Made by a program: the position numbers and the translations under genes
Shown here: one piece after another, positions 2,847-16,558 of the stretch
How the letters are laid out: every line of letters starts with the position of its first letter
Numbering within the stretch: position 1 is the first letter of the stretch
Origin: a virus
Taxonomy: Duplodnaviria; Heunggongvirae; Uroviricota; Caudoviricetes
IMG/VR virus record: IMGVR_UViG_2609460218_000018
Span: 1 to 42,196 of that record
Strand: one strand, 5' to 3'
Length of the DNA: 42,196 nucleotides
The notes under the pieces: generated by a model
The model's database searches: none
Told to the model about the DNA's origin: nothing
The model's input: the letters and a program-made list of their open reading frames with translations, nothing else

Positions 2847-3260
2847 TTACTGTCCCTCATCAATATCTATTTGGTGGCGAGCAAATGTCTCTGCCATAAA
2901 ACGAAAGTATTCAGCGGTCATTTCCTGAAACTCGACGTCATCATCGAATGCTCTTGAAATGGCCTTCTTGCTGGCCCCGCGACGTTGCAACTCGTCAACG
3001 CACAACGATTCCAGTTTGCTCTGCGGGAATCCTTTCTCAATGTCATCAGCCAGTTCAGATTCACGCTCTTCTCTGGCGATCTGCTGATAATGGCGCGTCC
3101 AGTTCTGCGCCTCGATACGGTCTTGAACGAGATATGCAGCCATAATCGGCTCCTGAAATTTGTTTGTGCGCTGCCCGTCTGCGATAGCCGGACGAGTAGG
3201 GGGAGTGGATTTGAAATTAGTGCTGGATAGGGTTACCGCGACCGTCGAGAAGGACGTCAA
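2847..3260 (-). CDS. hypothetical early protein (likely true start at the internal ATG near 3143 with a GGAG RBS)
   Basis: ORF in the operon series; a better RBS precedes the internal Met ([15 protein letters not shown]...). Confidence 0.4.
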
Positions 3261-13792: not shown

Positions 13793-13935
13793 CATTCGAA
13801 TCCTACTTTGCTGATCACCTTCGACTGCGATGGACACGGTTACGCATCTATCGTCGCCCGGGCTCATTTGCCACTGACTACCGGATATTACGCAATTACA
13901 TCAGTCGCTATAAAACATCAGGAGCAGAAGCATGA
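13789..13935 (+). CDS. hypothetical small Arg-rich protein (48 aa, possible NinH position)
   Basis: ATG overlaps the ninG stop and its stop overlaps the next start; MTFESYFADHLRLRWTRLRIYRRPGSF... Confidence 0.3.
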   Translation: MTFESYFADHLRLRWTRLRIYRRPGSFATDYRILRNYISRYKTSGAEA

Positions 13936-14546
13936 AGATAACGCCGATATTCTCAATGGTGAACTTTGTTGATGACGCTCATTTCCGGCGCGTGTGGCGT
14001 CACCCAAAAAAGACCATCACCAAAAAACAGCAGGCATGGGTACATTACATGCTGTCAGTCTGGGGGCGAGTTAATCGTGGTGATGATTCTCCAGCAGGTG
14101 CTATCAACGTTATCGGTCGCCTGATGATTCGCAGCCACTGGAGTGAGGATAAAGCCAACCAGATAGAAAGAGTTGTTATGCGGCTTTATGAAGAGGATGG
14201 CCTGCGTGGTGATGTTCTCTATCAGAAAGCCAGAGAGCTGGTTATCCCTCAATCATCGTTCAGCAATATCATCGCTCTCGCCAAAGAATCAGATGATGCC
14301 GCTTTCGTTGAACGCGTGATGATTAAAACGCTCCACCGGGAAAGCCCAGTTCGTGATGTCGCTATTAAACGATATTGTGATTGCAACAACACGCAAGACA
14401 TCGCTCGACGAATTCAATACCACACTGGTGCTGATATTCAATATTGCCGTAAGCGCGTTGTGTGGTGCGAGAACGTACTCGATGCGGAAATGTTTTACGC
14501 AATGAAGCGCGAATTGGAGAAGGAGATTCCAGAAATTGCAGCGTAA
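13932..14546 (+). CDS. Q: late-gene antiterminator Q-like protein (assigned mainly by position)
   Basis: 204-aa protein as the last nin-region gene, immediately upstream of a promoter plus ~190-nt leader ending in an intrinsic terminator; Cys-rich segment (CDCNN..CRKRVVWC). Confidence 0.5.
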   Translation: MKITPIFSMVNFVDDAHFRRVWRHPKKTITKKQQAWVHYMLSVWGRVNRGDDSPAGAINVIGRLMIRSHWSEDKANQIERVVMRLYEEDGLRGDVLYQKARELVIPQSSFSNIIALAKESDDAAFVERVMIKTLHRESPVRDVAIKRYCDCNNTQDIARRIQYHTGADIQYCRKRVVWCENVLDAEMFYAMKRELEKEIPEIAA

Positions 14547-14568
14547 GTAGAAATATTTTGTAAATATC

Positions 14569-14597
14569 TTGATTTCGGGAAATAGAAGTGTATATTT
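14569..14597 (+). promoter_or_regulatory. candidate late promoter PR' (TTGATT, 16-17 bp spacer, TATATT)
   Basis: About 25 bp downstream of the Q-like stop; predicted start ~14604, about 195 nt before the terminator, a length like the lambda 6S leader. Confidence 0.45.
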
Positions 14598-14772
14598 CCA
14601 TGTATGCTCGGACGTCAAAGGCGAAAGAGCGAGGTGGTGAGATAAGCGAGGCGGCGCTCACCACTGAACCGCCTAGTTGGTATCTTCGACGCATCGTCTG
14701 GTACTCCAACCATCGCAGGCTGAGAGGTTTGCAAAAGTCTAGTCAGTACTGGTTGCGAGAGTGACCATAGAG

Positions 14773-14802
14773 GCCCTGAGTTAATAGCTCGGGGCNTTTT
14801 TT
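14773..14802 (+). terminator. tR'-like intrinsic terminator
   Basis: GCCCTGAGttaatagCTCGGGGC, then N, then TTTTTTATTG. Confidence 0.6.
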
Positions 14803-15296
14803 ATTGATGAAATCTGGTAAGAGCATTAGGCAGACGGCAATCCTCACCACTGAATAGCACATATGCGAAAGATTGGTGTTGAATTGTGACGACGCTCGTC
14901 AGTGCCCTTTCCAGTTTTCGTCAACGTTAGCGACTTTGCGGTGATTTAGAAACTGACCACAAAAATAAATGCAAACGATGATCAATTCCTGGCAGTAGNC
15001 TAACGGCTAAACACCAGTGAGGTCTTCCGATTCCTCATCAACGAATTCGGCGCACTGGCCCGGTGTGATTAATAATGGGCGCACAACAGATAATTGCATT
15101 GGGGTGACCGGTTAATCCCGTTACGCTAACCGAAACAGGCGCAGTGCAATTATCGTTGTGGTGAATGCGCAGGCTGATGCGCGTGCAACAGCTACTCATT
15201 GAAACGGTAGTTATGCCGGAGTTCAGCACCGGTCACCACACACCAAATTCCTACCAGGACCATAAGAGCGAAAGCTCAACGCACTACCCTCATCTT

Positions 15297-15320
15297 GCCA
15301 GCCGCGCCGCTGGCTTTTTT
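15297..15320 (+). terminator. intrinsic terminator in the ORF-poor cargo gap
   Basis: GCCAGCcgcgccGCTGGC followed by TTTTTT. Confidence 0.5.
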
Positions 15321-15398
15321 AAAGCGCATTACCACCAAGAACCAGACCCAACCAACTCATTGCTGAATATCTGTGGCTACGGTGGATTAGTGCGCTTC

Positions 15399-15426
15399 NA
15401 AAAAAGAAAACCCGCGCTATGGCGGG
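15399..15426 (-). terminator. intrinsic terminator on minus strand, convergent with the one at 15297..15320
   Basis: Plus strand naaaaaagaaaaCCCGCgctatgGCGGG; on the minus strand a GC hairpin followed by UUUUCUUUUUU. Confidence 0.5.
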
Positions 15427-15518
15427 ATTCGTGAAAATGGGCGACGGTAAGTAGCGTCAACTACTCACCGCCATCTTGCCCGTGAATCGACTCACGAACA
15501 AAGACCGAAGGCCCATAT

Positions 15519-15532
15519 CGTCTGATCAGACG
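15519..15532. promoter_or_regulatory. perfect 14-bp palindrome CGTCTGATCAGACG about 85 bp upstream of the holin start (candidate protein-binding site)
   Basis: Read directly; flanks ATAT/GTAT extend the symmetry to about 22 bp with two mismatches. Confidence 0.35.
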
Positions 15533-15585
15533 GTATAGACATTAGATCGGATTTGTTCATCTAACAATCACCCGCAATCTTATTT

Positions 15586-15939
15586 TTGAACAAGTCCCCG
15601 AGTCTGGGGGTGGAAATGAACAGAATGCCATACAAAAGCGATCCGAACCTCTGGTCGATCCTCATCGCTTTCGGCATGACCCTAGTCGGCGCAATAGCCA
15701 GTTATTCATTCAAAGTCCTCAACGGTGAAGCATTTAGTTGGAGGACTATGTGCCTACAACTAATCGTGTCGATTTTCGCCGGGCTTATCATGATCATGAT
15801 TGCCATACATTACGCATGGCCGCAGGAAGTAACAGGCGGTGTGTGTGGTATGGCTGGCTGGTCTGGCTCATCTCTCATTAAAGCTCTGGAAGGTCGCTTC
15901 CTAAGCAAAGCGGCGGGGAAAGAAGCTGATAATGAATAA
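15586..15939 (+). CDS. class I holin, lambda S-like, with dual-start motif (MNRM); likely starts are the ATGs at ~15616 and ~15625
   Basis: Three predicted TM segments and C-terminus SSLIKALEGRFLSKAAGKEAD resembling lambda S; GGGGTGG RBS before ATG 15616; Met-Asn-Arg-Met parallels lambda S107/S105. Confidence 0.7.
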   Translation: MNKSPSLGVEMNRMPYKSDPNLWSILIAFGMTLVGAIASYSFKVLNGEAFSWRTMCLQLIVSIFAGLIMIMIAIHYAWPQEVTGGVCGMAGWSGSSLIKALEGRFLSKAAGKEADNE

Positions 15940-16558
15940 AGACCAGTTTATCAAAGCAACAGGTATCACACCGGCTTTAGCCGACAAGTGGTACCAGTGC
16001 ATAGTCGATACCATGAAGGAATTCGGTATTGATACGCCAAAAAGACAAGCTCACTTTCTTGCACAGATTGGCACTGAATCAAATGGGTTCAGGTCGGTGC
16101 AGGAATCTCTTAATTACTCGGTATCAGGCCTGCAGATATTCGGCTCCCGACTGACCGAGCCTCAACGGCAGCATCTCGGGAGAAAGCCTGGAGAAATGGC
16201 GTTATCTCCTGCGAGACAAGAAGCCATTGCGAATATCGTTTACGGCGGCCGGTACGGTAACACTCAAAACGGCGACGGATGGAAATATCGTGGTCGTGGG
16301 CTGAAGCAGATTACCTTTAAGGATAATTACTCAGCATGCGGGAAAGCTCTGAATCTTGATTTGGTGGCCAATCCAGATTTGCTCCTTCAGGACTTAAACG
16401 CGGCTCGTTCCGCTGGGTGGTTCTGGAAAGCCAATAACTGCAATCAGTTCGCTGATACCGGGGACGTTAAAGGTTTAACCAGGCGTATTAATGGTGGATT
16501 CAATGGGCTGCAGGACAGAATCGACCGCACGAATAAAGCGGAGGCAGTTCTGAAATGA
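15932..16558 (+). CDS. endolysin, glycoside hydrolase family 19 (chitinase-like)
   Basis: 208 aa with GH19-type motifs (HFLAQIGTESNGF, GWKYRGRGLKQITFKDNY, NPDLL...AGWFW); overlaps the holin stop. Confidence 0.8.
   Translation: MNKDQFIKATGITPALADKWYQCIVDTMKEFGIDTPKRQAHFLAQIGTESNGFRSVQESLNYSVSGLQIFGSRLTEPQRQHLGRKPGEMALSPARQEAIANIVYGGRYGNTQNGDGWKYRGRGLKQITFKDNYSACGKALNLDLVANPDLLLQDLNAARSAGWFWKANNCNQFADTGDVKGLTRRINGGFNGLQDRIDRTNKAEAVLK

Follow-up and report, generated by a model that had tools for sequence, protein, structure and literature searches.

A tmRNA-like message-domain RNA between the late terminator and the holin gene of a phage with a lambdoid-type late region, and its possible link to host ribosome rescue

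The virus sequence IMGVR_UViG_2609460218_000018 (Caudoviricetes; all 42,196 nucleotides of the stretch analysed are referred to here as the window) carries, between its late terminator and its holin gene, an RNA locus whose main occupant resembles the message half of transfer-messenger RNA (tmRNA). Overall, the window is a new mosaic that resembles P22-like Salmonella phages and Edwardsiella phage Edno5 only in part. Its late region is laid out as in lambdoid phages, with a NinG gene (Pfam PF05766), a Q-like antiterminator open reading frame (ORF; 13932-14546; PHROG 753, E 2.6e-64), a PR'-like promoter, a strong terminator, an interval and the lysis genes. The PR'-like late promoter (TTGATT-16-TATATT, 14569-14596, plus strand), found in a consensus scan, lies directly 3' of the Q-like gene. 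A tR'-like intrinsic terminator on the same strand, with a 10-bp stem and a T run (stem region 14773-14795, element to 14803), is predicted to end a leader RNA of ~200 nucleotides of the lambda 6S or StxS type, and the leader and this terminator are also found in Salmonella phage SI8. The lysis genes comprise a LydA-type holin gene, which begins at the ATG at 15616, then a GH19 endolysin gene and an Rz-like gene.

The ORF-poor gap between terminator and holin spans 813 bp (14803-15615). A preliminary description of this stretch had seen no credible ORF there and had proposed small non-coding RNAs, a scar of cargo loss, or both; all of the features that it listed are present, within a few bases of where it placed them. 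The two ORFs in the gap (89 amino acids on the plus strand, 63 on the minus strand) are mechanical only, and protein-coding cargo was dismissed because neither matches a Pfam or PHROG family. Five terminator-like sites were observed in 13800-16500, where 2.3 +/- 1.7 are expected. Two of the reported terminators face each other inside the gap. The plus-strand one (15297-15320, with its stem at 15297-15314 and then a T run) closes an array of RNA elements and aligns with the 'late terminator tQ' of phage HK620, the differences in the stem being compensatory; the minus-strand one, found at 15426-15411 with a T run, closes a conserved RNA candidate on that strand. Three N bases fall within functional elements, namely at 14797 (the T run of tR'), 14999 (codon 10 of the tag described below) and 15400 (the T run of the minus-strand terminator); in homologues the corresponding bases are T, C or T, and T or A, respectively.

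The main occupant of the gap is a conserved core at 14913-15080 (plus strand) with the features of a tmRNA mRNA domain and no tRNA-like domain; the preliminary description did not recognise it as tmRNA-like. Neither ARAGORN nor Rfam at its gathering cut-offs finds anything in the gap, and a tRNA, a tmRNA or a known RNA family by such standard calls was set aside on that basis. The covariance search against RNA families that had been proposed as a check thus came up empty at gathering cut-offs, and in a permissive scan it yielded only weak tmRNA hits (beta_tmRNA and tmRNA_permuted) of 11-25 bits (best 16-25), against gathering cut-offs of 47-84. These hits are centred on AAAAAUAAAU-GCAAACGAUGAUCAAUUCCUGGCAGUAGNCUAA and AUAAAU-GCAAACGA; the reference families were RF00023 and the permuted RF01849-RF01851 and RF04321. 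About 180 copies of the core were gathered from IMG/VR and GenBank, and 75 diverse ones were aligned (alignment A2). One IMG/VR locus (IMGVR_UViG_3300025120_012822, ~3116-3181) has the look of an ordinary bacterial-type tmRNA, with a 5' end GGGGGUG and the tag ANDEVFALAA, and was left out of the family.

A core region of ~175 bp is conserved in 263 phage records by megablast and in 785 by blastn, at 72-94% identity, and is nearly always unannotated. The carriers include HK620 and HK633 (P22-like), P1, D6, Felix O1-like phages, the ViI-like genera Kuttervirus and Taipeivirus, N4-like Gamaleyavirus, Klebsiella siphoviruses of ~46 kb, and phages of Erwinia, Serratia and Hafnia. The core is usually situated among phage tRNA genes, with tRNA clusters at or around it in lytic phages. 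Among 5426 complete E. coli genomes, 686 (about one in eight) carry it, at 586 plasmid and 150 chromosomal places, and PGAP, the annotator of nearly all of these genomes, marks nothing at the core in most of the matches listed. In these genomes the core does not match the host's own ssrA. An exact-pattern scan of 185,579 species-representative genomes gave no more than five places, of which two were contigs from Enterobacterales genomes. By these occurrences, the core is essentially phage-borne. Literature searches for phage tmRNA-like, mimic or anti-tmRNA RNAs gave no match to it. An exhaustive search of plasmids and viruses by Hudson, Lau and Williams in 2014 found ssrA only in mycobacteriophages, naming Bacillus phage G and DS6A ('TLD only', where TLD is the tRNA-like domain) from outside their dataset and listing no enterobacterial phage (PMC4131195). 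The core is therefore reported by none of ARAGORN, Rfam at gathering cut-offs, PGAP and the 2014 tmRNA census.

The likeness to tmRNA is clearest around the tag frame. In the window, a GCA resume codon opens a 10-codon frame, ANDDQFLAV(A), which ends at a TAA stop (14971-15003, plus strand; the last codon contains the N at 14999), and both the length and the pattern are those of the E. coli SsrA tag, ANDENYALAA. The frame begins with GCAAACGA, and E. coli ssrA has the same eight bases at this point. Ahead of the resume codon stand U(-5) and A(-4), as in bacterial tmRNA, and the string AUAAAU-GCA is invariant or nearly so in the 75 diverse cores. In E. coli tmRNA it is this U85/A86 spacing, with the A four bases upstream of the resume codon, that sets the frame (PMC2481249), and the core has the same spacing. 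The frame has no start codon, and it consists of exactly 10 codons and a stop in 177 of 177 copies. Tags that the frames would yield include AANDDLMMVAA in P1, AANEEMYLAVA in HK620 and AANDNVFLAVA in Felix O1, as well as AANDDQFLAVA and AANDDVVLMAA, against AANDENYALAA from the host. Among 52 distinct tag sequences, the stop is TAA in 48, TGA in two and TAG in two, and a second in-frame stop follows in 13. Codons 1 and 2 are invariant, codons 3 and 4 generally encode acidic residues, and 48 of the 52 have Leu at codon 7; codon 9 is Val or Ala, and codon 10 is Ala in every copy, by way of four synonymous codons. The C-terminal ends are LAVA, LMAA, LAAA or MVAA, which have the degron-like character of tmRNA tags, and the whole follows the tmRNA scheme of AND, a hydrophobic stretch, and [A/V]A before a stop that is often doubled. 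The three codon positions have entropies of 0.58, 0.49 and 0.97, and the other two frames are of variable length. The tag thus shows a coding-type pattern of substitution, which implies that the frame is translated.

In structure, too, the core resembles the message domain of tmRNA: a helix-5-like hairpin contains the stop codon, and H-type pseudoknots lie downstream of the frame. The hairpin (14989-15017, plus strand) holds the stop in its loop, and its two helices (helices 1 and 2) are paired in 97.6% and 83.4% of alignment cells, with compensatory changes. It is followed on the same strand by pseudoknot a (15018-15050; helices 3-5, 98.6-99.1% of cells paired), in which the stem UGAGG/CCUCA encloses a loop CCGA that pairs with a downstream UCGG, and by pseudoknot b (15051-15080; helices 6-7), with a stem CGCAC/GUGUG and a loop GCCC paired with a downstream GGGC. 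The loop pairing of pseudoknot a covaries (CCGA/UCGG, CCAA/UUGG, CCAG/CUGG), and in pseudoknot b the sequences of P1, Felix O1-like phages and Kuttervirus are unrelated yet still complementary. On alignment A2 as a whole, 94.5% of cells are paired, against 24-46% when the partners are slid by one to three columns, and 16 of 26 pairs (189 cells) show compensatory changes, which none of 500 shuffles attains. RNAalifold by itself finds no more than two nested helices, the remainder of the core being pseudoknotted. In the 5' domain (~55 nucleotides), predictions commonly include a hairpin CUUUG-c-GGUU..GACC-a-CAAAG, whose loop has its complement in the 5' AGUUUU. The domain may fold in the manner of pseudoknot 1, but its sequence hardly varies and shows almost no covariation. 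None was found when it was sought in the CUUUG/CAAAG stem and in the 5' stem beyond GUUUU/GAAAC, and both of these elements were dropped.

These observations make it very probable that the core is a functional structured RNA related to the tmRNA message domain, and conserved, covarying structures in the interval bear out the proposal of structured non-coding RNAs. The reading as a scar of cargo loss fails because the main occupant, conserved as it is in 785 phage records, shows covariation and a coding signature; what fills this part of the late-operon leader is a small-RNA locus. A related explanation, that the core is a decayed remnant of a captured tmRNA or a cis-acting spacer whose hairpins serve the processing, stability or termination of the late transcript, would suit its place in a transcribed leader between two terminators and the mosaic, exchangeable nature of its flanks. 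It is very improbable in view of the 72-94% identity across unrelated temperate and lytic phages, of a promoter of its own in lytic phages and a terminator of its own in at least one, and of compensatory changes in three helix systems together with the tag coding signature; moreover, the core is not similar to host ssrA, and any match at all is limited to 686 of the 5426 E. coli genomes. A copy of host ssrA or a fragment of an attP site was likewise rejected, the window having no ssrA similarity and E. coli ssrA being unmatched by the core.

In the usual view, the tRNA and mRNA functions of a tmRNA must be physically linked, within one molecule or within a tightly paired two-piece one. The core has no acceptor stem, T arm, G3-U70 pair, CCA end or helix 2, has only two downstream pseudoknots, and is ~170 nucleotides long where a tmRNA has ~360. 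The 7-bp acceptor stem with G3-U70, the T arm and the 3' CCA that mark a tmRNA were looked for more widely. ARAGORN, which found the E. coli ssrA control, called no tRNA-like domain in the window or in nine related loci, save ordinary neighbouring tRNAs, and a custom scan for T arms and acceptor strands, together with blastn-short searches with ssrA over the whole 42-kb window, gave chance-level hits only. In lytic phages a strong sigma-70 promoter lies directly upstream (in a Felix O1-like contig TTGACA-17-TATAGT, which ends 7 nucleotides short of the core; in a Klebsiella siphovirus TTGACA-17-TAGATT), and with the promoter abutting the core the transcript is predicted to start at, or a few bases before, AGUUUUCG. 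At one of the loci (L117) the unit ends at an intrinsic terminator ~355 nucleotides downstream, without a CCA end.

The core in the window is flanked by three further structured modules on the plus strand. Module A (14814-14914) reads CUGG-U-AAGAGCA, a 77-nucleotide insert and UGCCCUU-U-CCAG, and modules of the same type occur in homologues; module B (15082-15159) reads CACAAC-AG-AU-AAUUGCA, an insert and UGCAAUU-AUC-GUUGUG. Both follow one design, in which an outer helix, a U joint and a 7-bp helix surround a variable insert of 40-176 nucleotides. The inner stem is AAGAGCA/UGCUCUU in most phages and AAUUGCA/UGCAAUU in module B of the window, with the other compensatory versions AAUGGCA/UGCCAUU, AAUAGCA/UGCUAUU and, in P1, AAGGGCG/CGUCCUU. 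A strict pattern for the module B stem recovered 27 of 166 loci, so that counts for the modules serve as illustration only. In module C (15154-15251), a closing helix GUUGUGGUG/CACCACA surrounds two hairpins, GCGCA-GGCUGA-UGCGC and GCCGG-AGUUCAGCA-CCGGU, whose loops are complementary (GCUGA/UCAGC); one homologue has the compensatory pair GUCGA/UCGAC, and 44 of 177 copies match the strict pattern. Modules A and B may be processing sites that would release a core with a 5' end like that in lytic phages. A stretch that runs from the last part of module B into module C (15139-15181, GTTGTGGTGAATGCGCAGGCTGATGCGC) is ~92% identical in HK629 and PDP46, where BLAST gives no core match, and the modules therefore seem to move independently.

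The modules and neighbouring genes bear on a further explanation, in which the core would be part of a rearranged but complete tmRNA, a new one- or two-piece permutation whose tRNA-like partner is supplied in cis by modules A-C or by an adjacent gene. The weak Rfam hits fall on permuted tmRNA families, the flanking modules of some homologues have GGTTCGAnTCC hairpins like a T loop, and the closing helix and kissing loops of module C are arranged like a tRNA. In Felix O1-like phages, and among core carriers only there, a D-armless tRNA-like gene with G3-U70, A73 and CCA stands right after the core (L130:2116-2197, in a Felix O1-like IMG/VR contig; also L006, ~1686-1770). It has the acceptor CGGGGCG/CGCCUCG, an encoded CCA and an anticodon-like loop CUUCUAA, and is not called by ARAGORN. 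This gene, however, is conserved at 83-100% in 263 phage records, among them Sugarlandvirus (tRNA-OTHER in one record), jumbo phages of ~350 kb and Justusliebigvirus. It is not a dedicated partner, because it is present in genera that are absent from the core's hits, and a conserved tRNA-like partner of Ala identity was rejected since this one adjoins the core only in the Felix O1-like phages and occurs independently elsewhere. With no partner conserved alongside the core, with window modules that lack Ala identity and are called neither by ARAGORN nor by the Rfam tRNA model, and with the L117 unit ending in an intrinsic terminator rather than in CCA, a rearranged complete tmRNA appears quite improbable.

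A frame that appears to be translated and has neither a start codon nor a tRNA-like domain led us to look for a link to the host tmRNA. A global RNAduplex comparison of the core with E. coli tmRNA was discarded, as its energies lay within the shuffled range and were dominated by meaningless long duplexes, and it was replaced by a scan for ungapped helices. The 5' end of the core, AGUUUUCGUC (14913-14922, plus strand), is perfectly complementary to E. coli ssrA nucleotides 96-105 (GACGAAAACU), that is, to tag codons 3-6, Asp-Glu-Asn-Tyr. A perfect helix of 10 or 11 bp to ssrA 96-106 is found in 124 of 170 unique loci, and no other ssrA position is matched systematically, the remaining matches being scattered and fewer than chance predicts. 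Within this seed, GUUUUCG is invariant in the 75 aligned cores, and in lytic phages the seed stands at the predicted 5' end of the transcript. The target, ssrA 96-106, presumably lies in an unpaired part of the tag frame, whose sequence is known to tolerate mutation. The complement CGAAAAC is absent from the phage tag frames tabulated, and the seed would therefore tell host from phage template. Other helices between the window and ssrA (15114-15122, 15245-15254 and 15294-15302) were rejected, being unconserved in the family and about as frequent as chance would give. The second of them, AAAUUCCUAC, is perfectly complementary to E. coli ssrA 321-330, and this match is probably due to chance because it is shared with SI8, which has no core, and is not conserved in HK620.

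The complementarity suggests a split form of trans-translation, which we put forward tentatively and regard as possible rather than likely. As the core lies between two late terminators, its RNA would be made in the window when Q-modified polymerase reads through tR' and would probably then be cut out at the flanking modules A and B, while in lytic phages its own promoter would place the 5' end at the conserved AGUUUUCG. The RNA would plug into the host ribosome-rescue system: its 5' end would pair with host tmRNA tag codons 3-6 and mask the host template, and the docked RNA, consisting of a message domain only, would tether the phage template, which has U/A frame-setting bases of its own, to SmpB and the tRNA-like domain of the host. 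Rescued ribosomes might then be redirected to the phage tag, to the presumed benefit of the phage. This docking-and-template mechanism, which we infer from the frame and the seed, is open to several objections. All transcript ends are predicted. We know of no precedent for a template in trans that uses the tRNA-like domain of another RNA, and the helicase activity of the ribosome may be enough to undo a 10-bp duplex. A loop of the core itself, AGAAACU, is likewise complementary to the seed, in the fold like pseudoknot 1, and conservation of the seed could therefore be structural; some of the third-position variation in the tag falls in helix 5 and could be structural as well. The Salmonella tmRNA tag, ANDETYALAA, implies at least one mismatch in the duplex, and many carriers are Salmonella phages whose seeds are no different. 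Finally, the seed match was found post hoc with E. coli K-12 ssrA as the sole target tested.

The main rival to this docking mechanism starts from the same complementarity. As an inhibitor or decoy, the RNA would remain untranslated and block host trans-translation, either as an antisense to the tag frame or by soaking up proteins that bind the message domain of tmRNA (S1, SmpB or RNase R). The absence of a tRNA-like domain and a 5' end antisense to the host tag codons would both fit, and such an RNA would mirror the TLD-only molecule of DS6A, for which Hudson et al. cite tmRNA inhibition, perhaps through titration of SmpB (PMC4131195). However, an untranslated RNA leaves unexplained the invariant number of 10 codons, the stop kept at one position as TAA, TGA or TAG, the frequent tandem stops, a last codon that is always Ala through four synonymous codons, and the conserved degron-like end. 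We consider an inhibitor or decoy rather unlikely.

The locus as a whole behaves as an exchangeable slot. HK620 has no earlier terminator, and there the whole array lies inside the PR' leader, up to 'tQ'. SI8 has the same leader, tR', distal flank and terminator as the window and, in place of the array, a gene like tRNA-Gln(CTG) (L003:1805-1877), which is overlain on the opposite strand by an annotated 'hypothetical protein'. Since SI8 carries this gene between the same flanks, the slot is a swappable site for small-RNA cargo, in agreement with the cargo site that had been proposed.

Downstream of the array, a second and independent candidate lies on the opposite strand. Many lambdoid phages, including HK544, HK106, HK140, mEpX1/2, Sf101, ES18, g341c, HK620, SI8 and Pantoea phage PA-1, conserve the region 15371-15600 (72-92%) between their late terminator and holin gene; it was read on the minus strand in an alignment of seven phages (A4). 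The candidate (~15531-15401, minus strand) consists of a palindrome hairpin, two short hairpins, a 12-bp hairpin (15477-15448) and the terminator, whose hairpin and U tract are present in all seven phages. Six of the 12 pairs of the 12-bp hairpin show compensatory changes, and its G-U pairs include some that the plus strand could not form. Folding energies are -58.1 kcal/mol (z -5.1) for the minus strand and -45.3 kcal/mol (z -3.2) for the plus strand. A candidate promoter, TTGTTA-17-TAATGT (15567-15539, with its -10 at 15544-15539), is a weak match by eye and is absent from the promoter scan output. This evidence supports a putative small RNA of ~130 nucleotides, independent of the core and antisense to the late transcript upstream of the holin gene, much as had been suggested for the holin leader. 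The combined statement, in which a tmRNA-like message-half RNA that plugs into host rescue is joined by this minus-strand candidate, is plausible, and we hold it with some reserve.

The palindrome that had been pointed out, CGTCTGATCAGACG (15519-15532, both strands), is present as a single copy in the window, is contained in none of 100 shuffles, and forms the first (5') hairpin of the minus-strand candidate. As a conserved protein site it did not hold up: among the seven aligned phages only the window and PA-1 share it, inside a 22-nucleotide indel, and it is therefore a lineage-specific addition. Alignment of related phages across the gap thus shows hairpins that are conserved and a palindrome that is not. 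The 12-bp direct repeat CTCACCACTGAA, at 14657-14668 and 14843-14854, lies two bases from its reported positions; one of 100 shuffles gives at least two matches, which puts it only weakly beyond chance, and nothing besides its presence supports it. Of its copies, the first falls in a hairpin loop of the PR' leader (GGCGG...CCGCC), the other within the module A insert. A related string, CACUGAA, occurs just 3' of promoter-like hexamers, near the expected transcript start, in Kuttervirus and Taipeivirus.

Closer to the holin gene, a CCCC..GGGG hairpin (15596-15609) lies over the holin ribosome-binding site and is conserved in seven phages; with the holin ATG at 15616 it makes up the element 15596-15618 (plus strand). 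A motif trio, GGATTTGTTC / GAACAAATCC / TTTGTTCGTGA (also noted as UCACGAACAAA / GGAUUUGUUC / GAACAAGUCC), is situated at 15494-15504, 15550-15559 and 15589-15598, is invariant or nearly so in seven lambdoid phages, and allows two alternative pairings. It is a speculation that these and the hairpin over the ribosome-binding site might control holin translation. The holin begins MNRM, which may be a dual start. The spacer between the convergent terminators (15321-15398) is conserved among lambdoid phages as well, for example in CTGTGGCTAC and CCAGACC..CCAAC.

Among known systems, the phage tmRNAs of the mycobacteriophage Bxz1 group and of Bacillus phage G are, like the core, derivatives of tmRNA borne by phages, but they are complete molecules. 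DS6A, with the tRNA-like half only, illustrates that a phage can keep one half, and the core is the message half only; a 5' end antisense to the host tag frame further sets it apart from tmRNA. In position, downstream of Q and PR', the window locus resembles the lambdoid PR'-tR' leader RNAs (lambda 6S RNA, LPR2 and StxS). These end at tR' and have been found bound to Hfq, whereas the core of the window lies beyond tR' and, unlike them, also occurs in lytic phages with no link to a late operon. The exchangeable slot is similar to that of the tRNA cargo found downstream of PR' in lambdoid phages, though the occupant in the window is not a tRNA.

A relative of tmRNA that consists of the message half only is present in hundreds of phages, among them the well-studied P1, HK620, Felix O1-like and ViI-like phages. 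The ribosome rescue pathway matters for the growth of lambda-P22 hybrid phages (PMC2481249). If ribosomes do use the RNA as a template, this shows that a tag template can work in trans and that phages redirect what becomes of the proteins from stalled ribosomes; a split system of this kind, if true, would be a parasitic, trans-acting rescue template in these and many other enterobacterial phages. If it is instead an inhibitor, it would be a new anti-host RNA aimed at ribosome rescue. The finding would also change the annotation of the 'empty' interval between Q and holin, and of unannotated stretches in phage tRNA clusters.

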